Notes: generated from the sequence alone by a model not told the origin. A stretch of DNA of 64,000 nt from Candidatus Sumerlaeia bacterium (GCA_019634695.1 JAHCAW010000004.1:64831-128830); one strand, 5' to 3'. Shown: positions 8,544-64,000, counted from the first letter of the stretch. A program made the numbers and translations.

Positions 8544-9200
8544 ATGACCGACACGCCCACCGCACTCGAACAGGCCGCACTGCGCTCGCGCGTCTACGGC
8601 CTGCTGGCCCGCGCGCTCCGTCCGCCCGACGAAACGGAGCACGCCTGGCTGCGCGAGGAGTTCCTGCCCGCCGCGCATGCGCTTGCCGTCACGCCGGACG
8701 ACCTGCTTGCCGAGGACGAACTCCCCACTCTCGAGCAGCACCGTCGCGACTTCCACCAGCTCTTCGACTCGCACGGGCCCATGACGGTCACGCCCTACGC
8801 CATCGAGTACCTCAAGGAGTGGCCGCAGCAGTCGCTGCTCGACACCGTGCAGCTCGCCGACGTCCAGGGCTTCTACCGCGCGTTTGGGCTCGAGGTTTCC
8901 CAGACGGGATCGGAGCGATGCGACCATGTGCGTCTCGAACTCGAATTCCTGCACTTCCTCGGTCTCAAGGAGGCCATCGCGCTCGACCGCGAGGACGCCG
9001 AGCACCTCGAGGTTGTCCGGCACGCGCAGAAGCGCTTTCTCGAGGACCATGCGGGTCGCTGGCCCGCCCGCTTTGCCGACGCCGTCGAGCGTCACGACGC
9101 CCCGGTCTACTACTGCAAGCTCGCCCGCCTCATCCGCACCTGGGTCGAGACGGACATGAAAATGGTGGGCTGCACGCCCCGCCGACCCGTCACCGTTTGA
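8544..9200 (+). CDS. TorD/NarJ-family maturation chaperone for the type II DMSO-reductase-family enzyme
   Basis: This ~218-aa acidic cytoplasmic protein has the opening LRSRVYGLLARALRPPDE typical of TorD/NarJ-like chaperones. It occupies the fourth position of the operon and has a GAGAGGAG RBS. Confidence 0.7.
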   Translation: MTDTPTALEQAALRSRVYGLLARALRPPDETEHAWLREEFLPAAHALAVTPDDLLAEDELPTLEQHRRDFHQLFDSHGPMTVTPYAIEYLKEWPQQSLLDTVQLADVQGFYRAFGLEVSQTGSERCDHVRLELEFLHFLGLKEAIALDREDAEHLEVVRHAQKRFLEDHAGRWPARFADAVERHDAPVYYCKLARLIRTWVETDMKMVGCTPRRPVTV

Positions 9201-9673: not shown

Positions 9674-10621
9674 ATGCAACCGAAGCATTTGTCACTGCTC
9701 GCCGCTGGGGCATTGTGCCTCGTCGGTACCGCCGTCCAGGCCCAGCCGCACAAGCTGTTGATCTCCGAGGTGATCATCGACTGCATTAACCCGGAGGCGT
9801 CCAACGACTCCAGCGAGTGGATGGAAATCTACAATCCCAACAACTTTGCGGTCAGCCTCGACAACTACTACATCACCGACGTGAACTCCTACTGGACCTT
9901 CACGACCGCGACGGACAACAAGCTGCCGACGGCCGACTCGGACCACCTGATCGGCTTCCCGATCGGCTCGTCGATTCCGGCCAACGGCATCGTCGTCGTC
10001 ACGGCCCTGGCGAGCCGCTTCCTGACAGACTACCTCGACGGCAATCTGGCGACCTTCACCTCCCTGCCGGGCAACCCGCAGCTCTTCCAGGTGGGGCCGA
10101 CGCCGCCGGTCGGCGTCGAGCGCATGCGCAACTTCCACACCCTCGAGACTGCCAACGCCCAGACGAACTTCAGCCGCACGAATGCCGCCGCCGCCAACGG
10201 CGAATTCTCCGTCCTCTTCTACTGGGACGGCAACGCGTCCAACAACGTCGTGGACATCGACATGGTCTCGTGGGGCAACCCGACCGGCGGAAACCTGATC
10301 GCGCCGAAGACGGGCGTCAACGCGCCGGGCTACCAGGTCGATGGCGGCTCGCACACGAATCTCAGCGTCGGAACATTCGCGGCGATCTATCGCATCAGTG
10401 CGGCCGAACCCGGCCAGCCGAGCTCGGGCGGCAACGGCGTCGGCGGCACCGACGAGACGATGGAGATCAACGGCGCCACCGAGGCGAGTTCCTCCTGGCG
10501 CGGTCTGGCCATTGCCAATGTGCCAACCTACACGAACAACGACTTGGTCAACCCCGACGGAGTGACGCCGGGCGTCTCGCCGTTGCAGACCTCCAACGTC
10601 TCGACCTGGCCGATGTACTGA
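9674..10621 (+). CDS. Secreted lamin-tail-domain (LTD) protein
   Basis: Signal peptide (LLAAGALCLVGTAVQAQ), then an LTD signature: LLISEVIIDC...SSEWMEIYNPNNFAVSLDNYYITD. Confidence 0.7.
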   Translation: MQPKHLSLLAAGALCLVGTAVQAQPHKLLISEVIIDCINPEASNDSSEWMEIYNPNNFAVSLDNYYITDVNSYWTFTTATDNKLPTADSDHLIGFPIGSSIPANGIVVVTALASRFLTDYLDGNLATFTSLPGNPQLFQVGPTPPVGVERMRNFHTLETANAQTNFSRTNAAAANGEFSVLFYWDGNASNNVVDIDMVSWGNPTGGNLIAPKTGVNAPGYQVDGGSHTNLSVGTFAAIYRISAAEPGQPSSGGNGVGGTDETMEINGATEASSSWRGLAIANVPTYTNNDLVNPDGVTPGVSPLQTSNVSTWPMY

Positions 10622-21210: not shown

Positions 21211-21531
21211 ATGCAGGAAATCACACTCCTATACATCCCCTGTCCCTCCGAAGAGGAGGCATGCCGCATCGCACGCCACCTGCTCGACGCGCGCCTTGTC
21301 GCCTGCGCGAACTGGTTCCCGATCCGCAGCATGTACTGGTGGGAGGCAGCACTCGCCGAGGAGGGCGAGGTCGTGCTGCTTGCCAAGACGCTCCCCGCCA
21401 AGGCCGACGCCGTCGAAGCCGCAATCCGCGCCGTCCATCCCTACCAAGTGCCCTGCATCGCCCGTGTCGCAGCCTGCGTGAATGAAGAGTACGGCCGGTG
21501 GATGGAGAAGGAAGTAGATATTAGCCTTTAG
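21211..21531 (+). CDS. cutA: Divalent-cation tolerance protein CutA
   Basis: The 106-aa product contains CANWFPIRSMYWWEAALAEEGEVVLLAKT...HPYQVPCI, the typical CutA1 fold signature. ATG 21211 follows AGGGGGA. Confidence 0.85.
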   Translation: MQEITLLYIPCPSEEEACRIARHLLDARLVACANWFPIRSMYWWEAALAEEGEVVLLAKTLPAKADAVEAAIRAVHPYQVPCIARVAACVNEEYGRWMEKEVDISL

Positions 21532-21685
21532 TTGTTGGCTGTTGGAACGTGCCCTTCTGGAGCGTAGAGCAGCCGGCGGAACAAGCCTCTCCTCGGTCAA
21601 GGCACGAACCACAACCGCATCAGCTCAACAGCCAACAACTAACAACCAACAACTAGCCTCCAACGACTAACATTTTCTCCCCCCC
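21529..21685 (+). repeat. Heptad-periodic inverted-repeat intergenic element A (GT-rich arm, ~80-nt spacer, CA-rich arm abutting the next start codon)
   Basis: TAGTTGTTGGCTGTTG (21529-21544) is a perfect 16/16 complement of CAACAGCCAACAACTA (21626-21641). The CA arm continues as 7-nt units to about 21670. There is an inner stem CGTGCCCTT / AAGGCACG. The local GC content drops relative to the flanks. Confidence 0.6.
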
Positions 21686-22657
21686 ATGCTCCCCTCCTGC
21701 TCCATCGTCATCGTCACCTGGAACCGCCGCAAGGAGCTCGAGCCCTTGCTGGAGTCCGTCTTTGCACAGACAATCGCGGACCGGCTCGAGGTGATCGTTG
21801 TGGACAACGCCTCGACGGACGGGACGGTTGCGTGGCTGCGCGAGGCCTATGCCGGCCGCGTGCGCGTGTTTGCCTACGCGGAGAATCGCGGCGCGTGCGA
21901 CGGGCGCAACGCCGGCATTCGCGCCGCATCCGCGCCGTACGTCTGCTTCCTCGACTCCGACGCGGAGATACTCTCGCCCGACGCCATCGAGCGCTGCCTC
22001 GAGCACCTCGATGCCAATCCCGGCACCGACGCCGTCGCCGCCCCGATCTGGTTCGATCGCGCGAAGACCAATCCCTTCCTGCTCGGCGGTTATGTTACGC
22101 CCGACGGGCACTATCATGGAATCAGTTGCCGGTCGCGCGACGACGAACCCATGCTGCTCTCGACCTGTTTCGCCGTCTGGCGCAAGGCCACCCTGAAGGA
22201 GGTTCGCGGCTTCGATCCGTGGTACTTCTGGGGCATCGAGGACATGGACCTCGGCCTGCGGACCTATCATCGCCGCAAGCGCCACGATCCCGGCGCGCAA
22301 CCCTTCCGCATCGTGCGCGGCGTCGATGTGCTGCACGAGATGTCCACCGCCGGGCGCCACCACGACCCGCGCAGCTTCGAGCAGACTTTCGTGCGCTACG
22401 AGCGCCAGCGCCTCTACATGGTGCTCTCGTACGGCGGCCTCGGCCAATTCCTGCGCGTCGCCGCGCGTGGCCCATTCCGCATCCGCCGCATGGCCGACGC
22501 ATGGGAGCACGTGCTGACGCGGCGCCAGCGCTGGCAGGCCGCCGTCTGGTTTCCGCTGCTGCGCCTGCTGGCCTTGCCGAAGAACCTGCTCGACGTGCGG
22601 CGCAACCACCTCGCGCGCACGACGATGCCGGTCGAGGTGACGGATCAGAGCGCCTGA
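21686..22657 (+). CDS. Family 2 glycosyltransferase
   Basis: Classic GT2 N-terminus: CSIVIVTWNRRKELEPLLESV...VIVVDNASTDGT...ENRGACDGRNAGI...FLDSDAEI. Confidence 0.85.
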   Translation: MLPSCSIVIVTWNRRKELEPLLESVFAQTIADRLEVIVVDNASTDGTVAWLREAYAGRVRVFAYAENRGACDGRNAGIRAASAPYVCFLDSDAEILSPDAIERCLEHLDANPGTDAVAAPIWFDRAKTNPFLLGGYVTPDGHYHGISCRSRDDEPMLLSTCFAVWRKATLKEVRGFDPWYFWGIEDMDLGLRTYHRRKRHDPGAQPFRIVRGVDVLHEMSTAGRHHDPRSFEQTFVRYERQRLYMVLSYGGLGQFLRVAARGPFRIRRMADAWEHVLTRRQRWQAAVWFPLLRLLALPKNLLDVRRNHLARTTMPVEVTDQSA

Positions 22658-55254: not shown

Positions 55255-57129
55255 CTACTCCCACGTTTCCTTGTCGCTGCGCACGGCGCGCGAGTAGAAG
55301 TTGTCCCCGCGCATCAGCTCGTCGTGCGTGCCGACGGCCACGATGCGGCCCGCGTCCAGGATGGCGATCGCGTTGGCATGGCGCACCGTCGCCAGCCGGT
55401 GCGAGACGATGAACGTCGTGCGGTCCTTCATCACGCGGTCGAGCGCACCCTGCACGAGCGCCTGCGATTCCATGTCGAGCGCGCTGGTGGCCTCGTCCAG
55501 GATCAGGATGCGCGGATTGCGGATCAGTGCGCGTGCGATGGCCAGGCGCTGGCGCTGGCCGCCGGAGAGCTTCACCCCGCCGTCGCCGATGCGCGTGTGG
55601 ATGCCCTGCGGCAGATCCGACACGAACTCCCACGCGTTGGCCAGCTTCAGCGCCTCGATGACACGCTGCTCGTCCACTTCGCGCCGGCCGAAGTTCACGT
55701 TGTCCGCGATCGAACCCGCGAAGAACACCGTCTCCTGCGTGACGACGCCGACGAAGCGCCGCAGCGCGCGCAGATCGAAGTCGCGATAGTCATGGCCGTC
55801 CAGGTGGATGCTGCCCGCGTTCGGCCGCACGAAGCCCATCAGCAGCGACAGCACGGTGGACTTGCCGGAGCCGCTGCCGCCGACCAGCGCCACCGCCGTG
55901 CCCGGCGCCACGCTCAGCGAGAAGTCCCGAATCGCCGGAATCTCCGTCTTCGGGTACGTGAACGTGACGTCGCGGAACTCGATCTCGCCGCGGATGTCGT
56001 CCAGCCAGCGCTTGCCCAGGTTCTCCTCGAGGTCCGGCGCGTTCAGGATTTCGATGATCGAATCCACCGATTCGCGCGACTGCGCGATCTGCGGCAGCGT
56101 CGCCACCACCGCGTTCAGGTTGCCCGTCAACGCGACGAAGAAGCCGTTGAACATCAGCACATCGCCCACCGTGATCGCGCCCCGGAAGGCCGCGTACACC
56201 GAACCCGCCATGAAGATCACCTGCATCAGGTTCATCACCACCCATGCCGACGCGCCGAAGAACGCGTTCACAATGTCCAGCCGCCGCGCCTCCTCGAACA
56301 CCCGCGAGATCGACTCGGACACCGTCTCGAGTTCCTCCTCCTCCAGCGCGTGCGCCCGCGTCACCGGGATCATCGTCATCATGTCCGTCAGCCGCGAGCC
56401 CATGCCCTCCACCGACCGCCGGTACGCGTGCGCCGTCGCCGCCAGCCGACGGCTGAAGTGCCGCATCAGCAGCACCGACACCGGCACCAGCAGCACGAAG
56501 AACAGCAGCGCACGCGGCTCGCGCACCAGGATCGCCGCCACCGCCACCACCACCTGAATCGCGAACACCACGAACGTGATCATGATCGCCGGCGGCGCGT
56601 TCTCGATCAGCTCCACGTCGCGGATCGCCTTCGCCTGCAAGCGCCCCACGCTGCCCACGTCGCTCGCCACCAGCGACAGCCGCTGCAACTGCCGGCACAG
56701 GCTGATGCGCAGGTCCCGCCCGATCGCCCGCATCATCTTGCTCTGGTACTTCGCCCGCAGCACGGTCGACGGCACGTTTTGCCCGACCAGCGTCAACGCG
56801 ATGCCCGCGTATACGAGCAACCACGTCAGCCGCCCGTCGCCCTCCACGCCGATCAGGTCCACCATCCGCGCCACCAGGATCGGCATGAACCAGACCGGCG
56901 AATGCTGAAAGCAGAAGAACAGCACGGTCAGCAGCAGGTTGCGTTGATGCCCCTGCAGGCGGTCGCGCACGAACTCGTTCAACTGCCGCCGGCGCAATGC
57001 GTCGGTCGCCGGCTTCGTGGCATGCGAATCGGAGGAAGGCGAGTTCAGGGCGGCGACTCGGGAAGGGACGTTGTTCGCGGTTCGCGGTTCGTCGTTCGAA
57101 TGGTCCGGTTCATGTGCATGCCGATCCAA
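55255..57129 (-). CDS. ABC exporter, fused permease/ATPase (MsbA-like)
   Basis: Six-TM domain, then Walker A GGSGSGKST, signature LSGGQRQRLAIARA and Walker B ILILDEATSALD. The track start is a TTG at 57129 that lies inside repeat element B, so the true start may be further downstream. Confidence 0.85.
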   Translation of the reverse strand: MDRHAHEPDHSNDEPRTANNVPSRVAALNSPSSDSHATKPATDALRRRQLNEFVRDRLQGHQRNLLLTVLFFCFQHSPVWFMPILVARMVDLIGVEGDGRLTWLLVYAGIALTLVGQNVPSTVLRAKYQSKMMRAIGRDLRISLCRQLQRLSLVASDVGSVGRLQAKAIRDVELIENAPPAIMITFVVFAIQVVVAVAAILVREPRALLFFVLLVPVSVLLMRHFSRRLAATAHAYRRSVEGMGSRLTDMMTMIPVTRAHALEEEELETVSESISRVFEEARRLDIVNAFFGASAWVVMNLMQVIFMAGSVYAAFRGAITVGDVLMFNGFFVALTGNLNAVVATLPQIAQSRESVDSIIEILNAPDLEENLGKRWLDDIRGEIEFRDVTFTYPKTEIPAIRDFSLSVAPGTAVALVGGSGSGKSTVLSLLMGFVRPNAGSIHLDGHDYRDFDLRALRRFVGVVTQETVFFAGSIADNVNFGRREVDEQRVIEALKLANAWEFVSDLPQGIHTRIGDGGVKLSGGQRQRLAIARALIRNPRILILDEATSALDMESQALVQGALDRVMKDRTTFIVSHRLATVRHANAIAILDAGRIVAVGTHDELMRGDNFYSRAVRSDKETWE

Positions 57130-57200
57130 TCCGTCCGATCTTTCGCATCGGCCTCATCAGTGCTTCGGCGTGTGCCTCTCGAACCACGAACCACGAACCA
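57073..57200 (-). repeat. Heptad-periodic inverted-repeat intergenic element B
   Basis: GTTCGCGGTTCGCGGTTCG (57073-57091) pairs with CGAACCACGAACCACGAAC (57180-57198). As RNA, that register gives 17 Watson-Crick plus 2 G-U pairs over 19 nt. The arms are 7-nt tandem units (GCGGTTC / GTGGTTC). Confidence 0.5.
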
Positions 57201-57207
57201 TGAAGAA

Positions 57208-58677
57208 CTAAATCTTCAGGAAGATCTTCTTCCGGTACAGCGGATAGGTCAGCACCAGCCACAGGCAGATGTAGAACAACGCAAAGGCCAGCGAGGCGAA
57301 CTTCATCTGCGACGAGCGGCTCACCTCGGCCAGCAGGTCCACCTTCGAGAACACGGTCAGGATCGGATCCTGAATGCCGCGCTCCCAGATCCAGTTGCGC
57401 AGGTTCCACAGCCCCGTGCCGTCCGCCTTCATCCACGTGATGCCCGACATCGCCCGCGCCAGAATGCCCGAGCCGAAGAAGATGAAGATCGCGTTCGTGC
57501 CGAAGACCATGAACGGCCCGGCCCATTTGCGCTGGCCCTTGATGTCCAGCAGATAGTAGCACACCGCTAGGAAGTGCAGCGCGAAGCCCGTCATCGCCAG
57601 CACGTAGCTGCTCGTCCAGATCTTCTTGTTGATCGGGAACTCATAGCCCCAGAACAACCCGGCCACCACGAGCACGTTGCCCGCGAAGAACAGCCCCAGG
57701 CAGATGCGCTCCTTCGACAGTCCCGAGCGCATCCACGTCCCGGTCAGGATACCGGTAAGCACCGTTGCGATTGCCGGGATCGTGCTCAGCAGCCCCTCGG
57801 GGTCCGGGCGGAACCGGTACAGGTGCGCGCCCAGCAGCTTCGCATCGATCCAGTCGTGCAGCAGCCCCGGATACGGCGCGCCCGCCGTCGCGTCCATCAC
57901 CGTGTTCGGCACGCCGCCGCCGAACTGGTGGCCGAAGAAGTGCGCCACAAAGTCGTGCTTGCAGATCACCCAGTAGCCCGCCAGCAGCACCGCCGTCCAC
58001 GCCACGCGCCCGGCCGTCTGCGTGAACAGCATGATGATCGACGCGAAGAAGTACGCCAGCCCGATGCGCTGCAGCACCCCCGGCACCCGCAGCACCCAGC
58101 CCGACACCTCTCCCCCCGCCGCGTTGATAAACTTCACGTCATTCGACATCGGCCAGAAGAAGTGCCGCGGATCGAAACCGACCACGCGCCCGTTGAAGTG
58201 ATCCCAGTTCAGCACGAACCAGGTCACCGCCACCACGAGCACCCCGGCCCCGACCAAGCGCCGGCTGCCCGCCGGCTCGCCCTCGTGCCGCTCGGGCCAG
58301 AACAGCGTCACCCCGATGATCGTCAGGATAAACGGCCCGGTCAGCCGCAGGTTCGGAAAGCCCTGCAGGATCAGCCCCAGCATCACCAGAATGATCGACC
58401 GCCGCGCCACCTGCTCCATCAGCAGAAATCTGTTTGCGCCCTCCCGCAGCCTGCGGTCGAAGGAGAACGTCATCGCGACACCGACGATGAAGAGGAAGAA
58501 CGGAAAGATGAAGTCGGTGGGCGTAAAGCCGTCCCACTTGGCGTGCCCAAGCGGGTGGTACATCGCCCCCCAAGTGCCCGGGTTGTTCACCAGCACCATC
58601 ATGGCGATGGTGATCCCGCGGAAAACGTCGAGCGACACCAGCCGCTCCTTGCCTTGGGCAACCAGCAAACCGGACAT
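57208..58677 (-). CDS. Membrane acyltransferase, heparan-alpha-glucosaminide N-acetyltransferase-like (DUF1624/DUF5009)
   Basis: RLVSLDVFRGITIAMMVLVNNPGTW...HAKWDGFTPTDFIFPFFLFIVGVAM matches the family signature. The protein is polytopic. The start was trimmed to ATG 58677. Confidence 0.75.
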   Translation of the reverse strand: MSGLLVAQGKERLVSLDVFRGITIAMMVLVNNPGTWGAMYHPLGHAKWDGFTPTDFIFPFFLFIVGVAMTFSFDRRLREGANRFLLMEQVARRSIILVMLGLILQGFPNLRLTGPFILTIIGVTLFWPERHEGEPAGSRRLVGAGVLVVAVTWFVLNWDHFNGRVVGFDPRHFFWPMSNDVKFINAAGGEVSGWVLRVPGVLQRIGLAYFFASIIMLFTQTAGRVAWTAVLLAGYWVICKHDFVAHFFGHQFGGGVPNTVMDATAGAPYPGLLHDWIDAKLLGAHLYRFRPDPEGLLSTIPAIATVLTGILTGTWMRSGLSKERICLGLFFAGNVLVVAGLFWGYEFPINKKIWTSSYVLAMTGFALHFLAVCYYLLDIKGQRKWAGPFMVFGTNAIFIFFGSGILARAMSGITWMKADGTGLWNLRNWIWERGIQDPILTVFSKVDLLAEVSRSSQMKFASLAFALFYICLWLVLTYPLYRKKIFLKI

Positions 58678-58831
58678 GGTTCTCGAATGACCCCCCGTTT
58701 CGGCAGCGCTGCCCCCCACCCCACCACCCCCCGCCCCCGCGGGAAAGCGGAATTGCGGCCCCCTAATTATGACCCGGCCTCGGGGCGTCCCAGCCCCGAC
58801 CACCTTCTCCGAGGGCAAGGACTGCGACCCG

Positions 58832-61499: not shown

Positions 61500-62855
61500 T
61501 CAGCCTTCGATGCCGAGTTCCTTGATGCGACGCTGGAGCGTGCGGCGGCTGATGCCCAGGGCCTCGGCCGCGCGCGTCCGGTTTCCATCGACTGCCGCCA
61601 GCGTGCGCTTCAGGTACAACGTCTCGACCTCCTCGAGCGGCAACCCCATCGGGATCGCCAGCGTGTCGCTCGGGGCGGTCTTCTCGCTCTTGACGGCGCC
61701 CGGCAGGTCGCGCGCCCCCACCGTGTCGCCCTGCAGGAAGACGAACGTGTTCTCCATGATGTTGCGCAGTTCGCGCACGTTGCCGGGCCAGTGGTAGGCT
61801 TGCAGGGCCTCGACGGCGTCGCGCGAGAGCGTCGGCACGGAGCGCCCGTTCTCGCGTGCGAACTCGGCCAGAAAGTGCTGGGCCAGCACCGGAATGTCGG
61901 AGCGGCGATGGCGCAGCGGGGGCGCGACGATCTGCACCACCTTCAGGCGGTAATACAGGTCCTCGCGGAATCGCCCCTCGGCCACCTCCTCCTCGAGGTC
62001 GCGGTTCGTTGCCACGATCAGGCGCACGTCCACCTTGATCGTTTCGTTGCCGCCGACGCGCTGGATTTCGCGCTGCTCCAGCACGCGCAGCAACTTCACC
62101 TGCATCGACAGCGGAATCTCGCCGATTTCGTCCAGAAACAGCGTGCCGTTGTTGGCCACCTCGAAGCGCCCCGGCCGGCGCGACACCGCGCCCGTGAACG
62201 CCCCGCGCTCGTGTCCGAACAACTCGCTTTCCAGCAACGTCTCCGGCAACGCCGCGCAGTGCACCGGGATGAAGTCCTTGCGCGCCCGCGGGCTCATCTG
62301 GTGCAGCGCCCGCGCCACCAGTTCCTTGCCCGTGCCCGACTCGCCCTGCACCAGCACCGTCGCCTTCGTCGGCCCCACCTGACGGATCATCTGATAGAGC
62401 TGCTGCATCTCGGCCGAATCGCCCACCATGCCCTCGATGCCGAAGCGCCGGTCGATCTGCTGGCGCAGCTCGAAGTTCTCGCGCAGCAGCCGCCGGTGCT
62501 CGGCCGCCTTCTCCACCAGCACCCGCAACTCCTTCACGTTCACCGGCTTCGTCAGGTAATCGAACGCGCCCTCCTTCAGCGCATCGACGGCCGACTCGAT
62601 CGTGCCGTGCGCCGTCAGGATGATGACCGCCGGCGCCGGGTTCAGCGTCAGCGCATGGCGCAGCACGCCCAGCCCGTCGATGCCGTCCATGCGCAGATCC
62701 GTCACCACCACGTCCACATCGTCGCTGTTGAGGATATGGATCGCCTCCTCGCCATTGGCCGCCGTCAGCACGTTGTTGTCCGTGCGCCCAAAGGCAAGGC
62801 GCAGGCCCTCGAGCACATCGGGCTGGTCGTCGATGAGAAGCAGATTGGCGGGCAT
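61500..62855 (-). CDS. Sigma-54-dependent response regulator (NtrC/AtoC type: REC + AAA+ + Fis HTH)
   Basis: REC domain: LLIDDQPDV...VVTDLRMDGIDG. AAA+ motifs: GESGTGKELVARALH, GAFTGA. C-terminal HTH: RTRAAEALGISRRTLQRRIKEL. Confidence 0.9.
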   Translation of the reverse strand: MPANLLLIDDQPDVLEGLRLAFGRTDNNVLTAANGEEAIHILNSDDVDVVVTDLRMDGIDGLGVLRHALTLNPAPAVIILTAHGTIESAVDALKEGAFDYLTKPVNVKELRVLVEKAAEHRRLLRENFELRQQIDRRFGIEGMVGDSAEMQQLYQMIRQVGPTKATVLVQGESGTGKELVARALHQMSPRARKDFIPVHCAALPETLLESELFGHERGAFTGAVSRRPGRFEVANNGTLFLDEIGEIPLSMQVKLLRVLEQREIQRVGGNETIKVDVRLIVATNRDLEEEVAEGRFREDLYYRLKVVQIVAPPLRHRRSDIPVLAQHFLAEFARENGRSVPTLSRDAVEALQAYHWPGNVRELRNIMENTFVFLQGDTVGARDLPGAVKSEKTAPSDTLAIPMGLPLEEVETLYLKRTLAAVDGNRTRAAEALGISRRTLQRRIKELGIEG

Positions 62856-62878
62856 GGAGGGCTCCGGGAGCGGGGGAA

Positions 62879-63155
62879 GTTGTTGGTTGTTGGTGACTAG
62901 TTGTTGGTGATTAGTTGTTGGTGATTAGTTGTTGGTTATTAGTGGTTGGTCATTAGAAGCGAACGTTGTGCCGAAGATCGGAACCCGAGTTGCCCGTCGA
63001 AGCCTTGGCGAAGACGGGAGCCTTTGACGGAGACGAAGGCGTCAGCGACCGGCATTCCCCAGCCTTCCATCAAGCCTCTGTCCCTTCTCCTGCCACCATC
63101 CGCCACAACTCTCCACCCACCAAGAACCAACAACTAATAACTAATAACTAATAAA
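62879..63155 (-). repeat. Heptad-periodic inverted-repeat intergenic element C (largest copy)
   Basis: On the plus strand, 62879-62956 is 11 consecutive heptads: GTTGTTG GTTGTTG GTGACTA GTTGTTG GTGATTA GTTGTTG GTGATTA GTTGTTG GTTATTA GTGGTTG GTCATTA. 63117-63155 carries the same heptads inverted (CCACCAAGAACCAACAACTAATAACTAATAACTAATAAA). There is a perfect 14-nt complement between 62924-62937 and 63125-63138. Confidence 0.65.
62959..62973 (-). promoter_or_regulatory. Weak sigma-54-type -24/-12 candidate inside the spacer of element C
   Basis: The minus strand reads CGGCACAACGTTCGC. It has GG-N10-GC spacing and resembles TGGCAC-N5-TTGC with two core mismatches. It lies about 105 nt upstream of the NtrC-type gene start. 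Confidence 0.25.
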
Positions 63156-63166
63156 CCCGAATTCCG

Positions 63167-63211
63167 CTCTCTGCCCTCTGCCCTCCGCCCTCCGCCCTCT
63201 GCCCTCCCCTC
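63167..63211 (-). repeat. C-rich (minus strand G-rich) heptad array abutting the DUF502 stop codon; G-quadruplex-type sequence
   Basis: Plus strand: CTCTCTGCCCTCTGCCCTCCGCCCTCCGCCCTCTGCCCTCCCCTC. The minus strand therefore has seven GGG(G) runs separated by 1-4 nt. Confidence 0.6.
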
Positions 63212-64000
63212 TTACTCCTCCTCCTCGCTCTTCGCATTCGGCAGATGCACGGTCAGCGGTTCGGGGGGCGGCAGCTTGGGCGGGGTGTCCAGGCCATTGA
63301 ACGGCGCGGTGTGCATCGAGTTCGGCGACAGGATGCCGCCGGAGATGATGAAGCGCACGGCGTCCTCGGTGGTCATGTTGATGTCGTGCACATCCTCGGC
63401 CGGCACCATGAGCAGGAAGCCGCTGGTGGGGTTGGGCGTCGTGGGCAGGAAGACGGTGACGATCTTGCGGTTGCCGGGCTGGAGGAATATCTCGCCGGTG
63501 GCGTAGGCGATGCACCAGATGCCGCGGCGGGGATACTCCAGGGCAACCACGCGTTTGACGCTGTCGCGCTTGGCGGTCAGCGTGCGCAGCACCTCGCGCG
63601 GCGTGACGTAGAAAAAGCGCACGAGCGGGATGCGCTCGACGATGCGCTCGCCGAGACGGATCAGGCGCCGCACCAGGAAGAAGCGCGAGAGCACGCCCGC
63701 GGCCAGGATGAACAGCAGCGTCAGGAAGAGCGAGACGCCGATCGTCAGCGGCGCGGCCAGCCGTTCCGGCCACGCCACAAGGTCCAGAAACGCCCGGACG
63801 ATCGGATCGATCATCTTGCCGACGTTGCGGTTCAGCAGGTCCGCCATGATCATGATCGCCCAGATCGTGATCATGGCCGGGATGACGGTGATCAGGCCGG
63901 CGATGAAGCGGCTGCGCAGCAGCTCGATGATGCCCGGCCGCGGATGCGGGACGGCGCGGATCCCGGCGTCGGGGGGTGTGGGGGATTCTTGCGAGTGACT
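63212..64000 (-). CDS. DUF502-family membrane protein, with its 5' end beyond the window
   Basis: VRRLIRLGERIVERIPLVRFFY...LEYPRRGIWCIAYATG...VFLPTTPNPTSGFLLMVPAEDV matches DUF502. My reverse translation stays open upstream of the track ATG (63874) to the window edge (...IIELLRSRFIAGLITVIPAMITIW). The gene probably starts outside the window, or at a non-ATG codon. Confidence 0.75.
   Translation of the reverse strand, partial: SHSQESPTPPDAGIRAVPHPRPGIIELLRSRFIAGLITVIPAMITIWAIMIMADLLNRNVGKMIDPIVRAFLDLVAWPERLAAPLTIGVSLFLTLLFILAAGVLSRFFLVRRLIRLGERIVERIPLVRFFYVTPREVLRTLTAKRDSVKRVVALEYPRRGIWCIAYATGEIFLQPGNRKIVTVFLPTTPNPTSGFLLMVPAEDVHDINMTTEDAVRFIISGGILSPNSMHTAPFNGLDTPPKLPPPEPLTVHLPNAKSEEEE

Follow-up and report, generated by a model that had tools for sequence, protein, structure and literature searches.

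The element described here, which we call C, occupies positions 62856–63211 of a 64,000-nt stretch of DNA from Candidatus Sumerlaeia bacterium (GCA_019634695.1, JAHCAW010000004.1:64831-128830; 67% G+C), referred to below as the window. It fills the 356-nt gap between the stop codon of a gene encoding a DUF502 membrane protein and the ATG of a gene encoding an NtrC-type sigma-54 activator, both on the minus strand, and contains three arrays of tandem heptads. In mRNA sense the order is UAA, G-rich array, GU arm, 160-nt spacer, CA arm, C-rich leader and AUG. The features, with repeat units and scores from Tandem Repeats Finder (TRF; 114, 46 and 62 for the three arrays) and structure predicted by minimum free energy (MFE) folding, are as follows.

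63212–64000, minus strand: upstream gene, DUF502 membrane protein (Pfam PF04367, E = 3e-25), running past the window end; stop TAA at 63214–63212; its product clusters with MBX3727999.1 from a Ca. Sumerlaeia metagenome-assembled genome (MAG), and a glycosyltransferase encoded in the window is 100% identical to a protein from the same 133-kb contig.
63163–63211, minus strand: G-rich heptad array directly 3′ of the stop, GGGCAGA/GGGCGGA in mRNA sense, about 6 units with about 7 G3 tracts; TRF unit CTCTGCC ×5.4, 93% match (63169–63206).
63117–63155, minus strand: GU arm, in mRNA sense UUAUUAG ×3, UUGUUGG, UUCUUGG and UGGGUGG; TRF unit AACTAAT ×3.3 (63132–63154); inverted repeats I1–I10 with 62879–62956.
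62957–63116, minus strand: spacer of 160 nt, non-heptadic and non-coding, through which the arms are predicted (MFE) to extend as a long imperfect rod.
62879–62956, minus strand: CA arm, eleven heptads of CCAACAA/CUAAUCA type in mRNA sense; TRF score 114.
62856–62878, minus strand: C-rich leader of 23 nt, CUUCCCCCGCUCCCGGAGCCCUCC, in which GGAG stands 6 nt ahead of the AUG; conserved in an ortholog at 87% identity.
61500–62855, minus strand: downstream gene, NtrC-type sigma-54 activator with receiver, AAA+ and HTH_8 domains (Pfam PF00072, PF00158, PF02954); ATG at 62855–62853; an exact look-up of its product gave no record.

On the plus strand, positions 62879–62955 read GTTGTTG GTTGTTG GTGACTA GTTGTTG GTGATTA GTTGTTG GTGATTA GTTGTTG GTTATTA GTGGTTG GTCATTA. 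The eleven heptads agree with an earlier note made from the sequence alone, whereas the array length given there (78 nt, ending at 62956) counted one extra G, the heptads themselves taking up 77 nt. TRF resolves the arm into a 14-nt unit, GTTGTTGGTGATTA ×5.1, with 92% match (62886–62956). In mRNA sense its composition is A38 C28 U10 G2, and it holds a single start codon and seven stop codons spread over all three frames; according to the codon counts, the complement of the CA arm in the same place would set 15 start codons ahead of the true one. In both arrays all six reading frames are interrupted by stop codons, as had been noted before. The two arms share a perfect 14-nt complement, since ATTAGTTGTTGGTT (62924–62937) is the reverse complement of AACCAACAACTAAT (63125–63138), and the complementarity extends to 27 nt at 89% (62924–62950 with 63126–63152). 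This match and the several alternative registers that the repeats allow were confirmed by sequence reading and a repeat search, and the earlier observations that the element lies between co-oriented genes, that a G-rich array follows the DUF502 stop and that 23 nt separate the CA arm from the regulator ATG were correct as well. Within the 64 kb, strong local tandem arrays occurred at lags of 7, 14 and 21 only, with none at the other lags from 3 to 20. A 24-nt pattern derived from the CA arm, CCAACNACTANNNNCCAACNACTA, found 8 matches in the window with up to 2 mismatches, versus 0 in 100 shuffles.

The layout of stop codon, GU arm, spacer and CA arm recurs at two further junctions of co-oriented genes in the window, named here elements A and B.

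21529–21685, plus strand: element A; the cutA stop UAG forms the first base pairs of the GU arm (21529–21545), the CA arm runs to 21672 and is followed by a C-rich tract, and the GT2 glycosyltransferase ATG is at 21686.
57070–57207, minus strand: element B, after the UAG stop (57210–57208) of an HGSNAT-like gene; GU arm GGUUCGU ×3 (57180–57207), spacer, and CA arm of CGAACCG/CGAACGA (57070–57099).

The GU arm of element A pairs over 17 bp with 21625–21641, one of the pairs being G-U, and 47 nt of CA- and C-rich leader lie between the stem and the GT2 ATG. Elements A and C are built from GUUGUUG/CAACAAC heptads, and element B from a separate family, GGUUCGU/CGAACCG. In each locus the two arms match down to locus-specific variants, with GGCUG opposite CAGCC in A and UUAUUAG opposite CUAAUAA in C, and the two arms of B match throughout a heptad family of its own. 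When the sense strand is considered, both mismatches in the main helix of B turn out to be U-G wobbles. Where the gene below B starts is uncertain: the ATG at 57022 was rejected as lying in another frame, and a TTG at 56997 is in frame. At many gene starts in the window (e.g., 14176, 17758, 43093, 51752 and 21686) the ATG immediately follows a C-rich run (...CCCC ATG), often with a GGAG/GAGG word 8–12 nt upstream, a feature that the leaders of A and C share. The spacer of B reads CUGAUGAGGCCGAUGCGAAAG at 57120–57150 (minus strand), in which the words CUGAUGAG...CGAAA recall the hammerhead core. We take this resemblance as chance and dismissed it, because no Rfam family reaches the gathering score in the window.

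The arrays are not unique to this locus, uniqueness being one of the refuting conditions set in the earlier note. Besides the three loci in the window, a single scan of metagenome contigs with CCAACNACTANNNNCCAACNACTA matched at least 120 contigs with a G+C content from 26% to 69%, each match being oriented as the CA strand. The census counts given here and below refer to the matches listed, among which arrays of CCAACGA/CTAACGA, CCAACAA/CTAACAA or CCAACCA/CTAACCA reached up to 20 heptads. Of the 96 loci that had 200 nt or more of flanking sequence on each side, 32 showed a complementary GT-rich arm 5′ of the CA array and 1 showed it on the 3′ side (p = 8e-9); by a stricter score the ratio was 22 to 0. 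About two thirds of the CA arrays had no partner arm. Independently of the search pattern, neighbouring period-7 arrays at most 400 nt apart were ordered G-rich then C-rich in 32 cases and the reverse in 4 (p = 2e-6). Since a GT-first inverted pair looks identical on either strand, the direction of the pairs must come from the genes: the flanking genes were co-oriented in 21 of the 23 pairs with genes called on both sides, with a median distance of 12 nt from the upstream gene and 5 nt from the downstream one. At 20 of 94 loci the CA array ended no more than 15 nt from the ATG of an open reading frame (ORF) of at least 100 aa, the corresponding count for the opposite direction being 4 of 95 (p = 4e-4), and arrays that abut starts leave no room for a Shine-Dalgarno sequence. 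This proximity fits the idea, put forward in the earlier note, of a CA-rich translational leader. Our results show a clear rule at the mRNA level, with G- or GU-rich heptads after stop codons and G-poor CA heptads before start codons. The lengths of the two arms correlate across loci (Spearman 0.44, p = 0.005). CA arms were also longer than GU arms in the census, but since the search pattern itself favours the CA arm, this difference was set aside.

Several of the pairs lie inside conserved operons, namely S6-S18 (rpsF-rpsR), pstB-phoU, rpoN-hpf and two branched-chain permease genes (livH-livM type), and arrays also precede leuD-type and atpD genes. One contig of the abundant soil group belongs to the Acidobacteriota, its AtpD being 94% identical to a Terriglobales MAG protein. 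A locus with a 94%-identical AtpD (L027, 8806–8844) carries an unpaired CCAACGA/CTAACGA array at the atpG-atpD junction. In a Terriglobales species seen in five samples (L135–L139), the atpA-atpG and atpG-atpD gaps of the ATP synthase operon both hold heptad arrays of other sequences, identical in all five: an array at 8767–8803 abuts the atpG start, and an inverted pair of GCTAGC-type heptads at 9891–10000 fills the 110-nt atpG-atpD gap. At this junction, therefore, the position is kept and the heptad sequence is replaced. In three low-GC, possibly cyanobacterial contigs (L047, 4282–4449; L099, 3006–3409; L116, 898–994) several heptad families adjoin, TTGGGCA with CATGCCC, TTGGGAA, and GGAGTTA with CTGCTCA, and the G-rich arrays always precede the C-rich ones, even where the arrays are not complementary.

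Comparison with relatives showed that the arrays gain and lose whole heptads. A relative at 87% DNA identity over 5.7 kb, present in two samples that are identical to each other (L003 and L134), has element C in a 300-nt form with fewer heptads in all three arrays: the G-rich array has 2 heptads instead of about 6, the GU arm lacks UUAUUAG units and the CA arm is four heptads shorter, so that the UUAUUAG and CUAAUAA variants of C are both missing from the ortholog. The spacers differ by a 17-nt indel. Three segments containing CGCCAAG, about 17–19 nt apart, surround this indel (window 63000–63040; L003 2470–2530), which suggests a second slippage site of longer period. The 61–64-aa ORFs in the spacer of C were rejected as coding because the indel shifts their frame. 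Public gene calls place "genes" of 43 and 44 aa inside the ortholog (L134, 10773–11042); these are probably spurious, since the window copy differs by the 17-nt indel and by heptad indels. Synteny with L134 stops short of element B, inside the HGSNAT-like gene (window 58277, L134 15668), and a 224-nt piece of the window (58538–58761) matches the far end of L134 at 98%, reflecting a rearrangement or an assembly break.

A search of genome contigs with the DUF502 protein returned distant relatives only. In relatives at 64–69% protein identity the DUF502-regulator gap is 13, 28 or 21 nt and has no element, and in one relative 168 nt without heptads separate the two genes. At 61% DUF502 identity, unrelated heptads (GGATGAA GGATGAA GGCTGAA GGCTGAA; L128, 3754–3789) stand at the DUF502 stop, where the contig breaks. 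One relative without element C has a 410-nt gap upstream of DUF502 (L004, 9589–10000), in which GTGGCTTGGG is repeated and several hairpin-like stretches occur. At the junction of element A, cutA and the GT2 gene overlap by 4 nt (ATGA) in relatives at 80% and 76% identity. Tight or overlapping junctions at the same places in relatives indicate that the elements are young, and such junctions are presumably translationally coupled (PMC6728339, PMC10666635).

In RNA folding against dinucleotide shuffles, z-scores were −4.2 for the whole gap of C, −3.2 for A and −2.25 for B. The arms of C are predicted (MFE) to form a hairpin of about 35 bp with single mismatches. Its outermost helix joins GGAGGGC, located 4 nt after the UAA, to GCCCUCC, the 7 nt directly before the AUG. 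G3 tracts are confined to the outer GGGCRGA array, with about 7 in the window and 3 in the ortholog; the GU and CA heptads have no G-tracts, and a quadruplex is therefore impossible in the main arms. No Rfam family reached its gathering score in the window, and a search of 62700–63400 up to E = 10 gave no match either. The motifs of Hfq, (ARN)n, and CsrA, GGA, were dropped, as CCAACGA-type heptads do not fit them.

Element C is a member of an already described, poorly understood kind of sequence, heptameric simple-sequence repeats arranged as convergent inverted pairs. One census locus (L017) has a CCAATGA-type heptad, the reverse complement of the cyanobacterial heptanucleotide STRR2 (TTGGTCA); STRR heptanucleotides were reportedly described by Mazel et al. 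in 1990. As Mrazek et al. 2007 are summarised in PMC4679880, heptanucleotides are the most abundant long simple repeats in most genomes examined. Rehm et al. 2015 (PMC4692102) described GGGAATC heptamers in Xanthomonas and GGGGA(C/T)T heptamers in Nostoc, with 70–75 "convergent" inverted pairs per Xanthomonas genome; the repeats are intergenic, with a preference for sites between aligned ORFs. Within 50 bp after stops the G-rich heptads belonged to the coding strand, and within 50 bp before starts to the non-coding one; the length of the Xanthomonas repeats varied between related species while their type, single or paired, was preserved, and they were mostly transcribed, had no link to mobile elements and were assigned no function (PMC4692102). 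The likeness of C to these pairs is close. It consists of head-to-tail 7-nt units (TRF periods 7 and 14, 5–11 units), its opposite-strand arrays (62879–62956 and 63117–63155) converge between aligned minus-strand genes, its G-rich and GU heptads follow the DUF502 stop while its CA arm stops 23 nt short of the ATG, and unit number differs between the window and L003/L134 with position and type kept. Its outer array likewise consists of G3-tract heptads right after a stop. Unlike in the earlier-described repeats, the quadruplex-type unit (GGGNATC, four G-tracts) has a counterpart only in the G3 tracts of the outer array, the main arms being GU/CA without G-tracts, and the heptad sequence varies between loci of one genome. 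The earlier note did not recognise the array from any repeat family on record, a view that does not hold, given the heptamer repeats of PMC4692102 and PMC4679880. What is new here is the phylum (Sumerlaeota) and the CYAACNA heptad family, both outside the study of Rehm et al., and the composite of three arrays; that study also made no comparison with relatives lacking an element, as is done here. A full-text literature search for the heptads found here returned no bacterial paper.

Other systems bear comparison. MacGregor 2015 (PMC4679880) reported TAACTGA arrays that abut start codons with few Shine-Dalgarno sites in Beggiatoaceae, Cyanobacteria and Bacteroidetes, and proposed S1, cold-shock or Csr-type proteins as their readers. 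Like these, the arrays in our census are tandem heptamers on the coding strand upstream of starts, often without Shine-Dalgarno room, with stops in all frames and in unrelated phyla. In contrast, the units of C are CCAACAA, CUAAUCA and the like, its array ends 23 nt before the ATG and GGAG is kept. Inverted sets made up 1 of 170 in a Beggiatoaceae genome (PMC4679880), compared to about one third in our census. The only case resolved by experiment, and the nearest tested analogue, is the 5′ untranslated region (5′-UTR) of Haemophilus influenzae hmw, in which (ATCTTTC)n pairs with a G-rich arm to give a long hairpin that is cleaved by RNase III; both expression and repeat-number change depend on the hairpin, and the heptad number sets expression (Rapun-Araiz et al. 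2025, PMC12721329). For element C a heptad hairpin of about 35 bp with a complementary arm is predicted, which would resemble this leader, and it is presumably transcribed, judging from how the flanking genes are oriented and from the absence of promoter-like or terminator-like sites. The hmw repeat differs in that it is a promoter-proximal leader of a phase-variable adhesin with a repeat array in one arm, whereas C is intercistronic. A further difference is that the repeat arrays are identical between samples here (two of the relative and five of the Terriglobales species). REP/BIME, ERIC and Correia-type elements are imperfect palindromes within proteobacterial operons that are co-transcribed and affect mRNA stability, RNase III processing, or translation near the stop. 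Element C, too, is an imperfect palindrome, inside what is probably an operon; yet those elements are multi-copy conserved sequences, some of them mobile, while the copies examined here share the 7-nt periodicity and polarity only.

We favour, giving it about an even chance, the reading that C is a composite of heptad arrays, with a convergent inverted pair at the junction of genes that are probably co-transcribed, and that it acts at the RNA level via its predicted hairpin. No sigma-70-like promoter or intrinsic terminator was found in C, which makes both co-transcription of DUF502 with ntrC and a hairpin at the RNA level plausible; an RNA-level intercistronic element is also the part of the earlier interpretation that we retain. 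According to this model, the arrays would grow by replication slippage, and the arms would be kept alike either through template switching in a quasi-palindrome, which copies one arm onto the other, or because pairing is under selection. Polarity would be enforced on the mRNA, where a CA leader offers almost no start codons or Shine-Dalgarno-like words and contains UAA in each frame, and the reverse arrangement would put a dozen GUG and UUG codons ahead of the true start. In the DUF502-ntrC transcript the arms would zip the 356-nt gap into the hairpin of about 35 bp on a longer rod, and the closing helix GGAGGGC/GCCCUCC would bring the DUF502 stop next to the regulator start. A terminating ribosome covers about 12–15 nt beyond the stop codon. 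A ribosome terminating on DUF502 could thus open this helix and free the start region, so that translation of the regulator would be coupled to upstream translation across 356 nt, restoring what relatives presumably manage with nearly abutting genes. Alternatively or in addition, the 35-bp helix may serve as an RNase III-type processing site similar to that of the hmw leader. In either case the number of heptads may set the strength of the effect.

Several results weigh against this interpretation. The ortholog at 87% identity, folded on its own, has a z-score of −1.0 and is no better than its shuffles. When the predicted pairs of C were projected onto it, 57 were identical, 8 were kept despite a one-sided change, 3 had double changes, 27 were broken and 26 were gapped. 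To the question raised in the earlier note, whether compensatory changes maintain arm complementarity, the answer is split: locus-specific variants are matched in both arms, but of the 38 ungapped pairs that vary, the ortholog breaks 27. As the exact base pairs are not conserved, any function can only be inferred. Folding energies of sense and antisense strands showed no consistent asymmetry. The coupling geometry proposed for C is not general, since the stem of element A lies at a distance from the AUG and leaves 47 nt single-stranded. Among the 32 G-first array pairs of the census 7 are not complementary, which means that polarity does not need a hairpin. The arrays are identical in the two samples of the 87% relative and in the five of the Terriglobales species, giving no sign of rapid switching. 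In addition, the scan of A, B and C that returned no promoter or intrinsic terminator covered, on the promoter side, the sigma-70 consensus only.

The main rival to an RNA-level role is that the elements are neutral by-products of slippage expansion and template-switched inverted copies, filtered by translation constraints: they would be retained only at positions and in orientations that are harmless, with no start-codon-rich GU tract ahead of a start, and the hairpin would have no role of its own. We regard this as a possible but less probable account. It agrees with the absence of element C from relatives at 64–69% protein identity, with the different heptad families at the same junction in other lineages (L128; L027 vs. 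L135), with the non-conserved pairs and weak fold of the ortholog, with the G-first polarity of non-complementary pairs, and with the lack of any function found for the Xanthomonas pairs (PMC4692102). It accounts less well for the elements located in essential operons (S6-S18, ATP synthase), where they replace coupled junctions; such elements cannot be without effect on expression. The locus-specific variants matched in both arms, the joint expansion of both arms and the G-rich array in one lineage, and the correlated arm lengths also speak against a mere by-product.

We consider it quite unlikely that the arrays serve a protein that reads the heptads, either on single-stranded mRNA (a cold-shock-domain protein, S1, or Rho at a C-rich, G-poor rut-like tract) or on DNA, with the GU arm as a masking competitor. 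The occurrence of CYAACNA heptads in contigs of such different G+C content, the 78-nt CA arm with only 2 G and regularly spaced C, and the arrays that abut start codons without Shine-Dalgarno room would all suit such a protein, which is also the hypothesis favoured for the TAACTGA repeats (PMC4679880). Yet different loci of one genome use different heptads (A and C vs. B) and unrelated heptads substitute at the same junction in relatives, so a single sequence-specific reader fits poorly, and no candidate protein was identified.

Finally, a miniature inverted-repeat transposable element (MITE) with heptads as terminal inverted repeats, which would look GT-first on either strand and would have inserted at junctions that are tight in relatives, is very improbable: presence and absence between relatives at A and C and a polarity independent of orientation are what it predicts, but the spacers of A, B and C, compared by blastn with the window and about 130 other loci, matched neither each other nor anything beyond themselves and the ortholog of C, arm sequence and length differ between loci, no target-site duplication was seen at the element borders in the 64 kb of genome searched (the only direct repeat, D3, lies off the borders), about two thirds of the arrays are unpaired, the changes in the ortholog are whole-heptad indels within arrays, and the Xanthomonas repeats show no link to mobile elements (PMC4692102). 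The results for spacer, duplication, Rfam and indel together leave a mobile element with a conserved core, a small gene and a known RNA family without support; a small mobile element had been among the hypotheses of the earlier note.

The polarity of heptamers towards genes and their pairing into hairpins have been documented and so far left unexplained. To this the present locus adds direct comparisons in which the elements occupy junctions that overlap or nearly abut in relatives, a testable rule by which GU heptads follow stops and G-free CA heptads precede starts (32 to 1), and examples within essential operons. A broader proposal, which we think unlikely, is that hairpins with GU after the stop and CA before the start form an operon-internal RNA class across phyla (Sumerlaeota, Acidobacteriota/Terriglobales, low-GC lineages). 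Such hairpins would arise de novo at overlapping or tight junctions and re-create or tune coupling or RNase III processing, with heptad slippage as a rheostat of the gene-product ratio. If the hairpin is functionless, the locus would cleanly illustrate how translation constraints filter a mutational bias. If it does couple or process cistrons, operons would have in it a general, readily evolvable means of setting expression ratios, and because the gene downstream of C encodes a sigma-54 activator, even a modest effect could shift a regulon.

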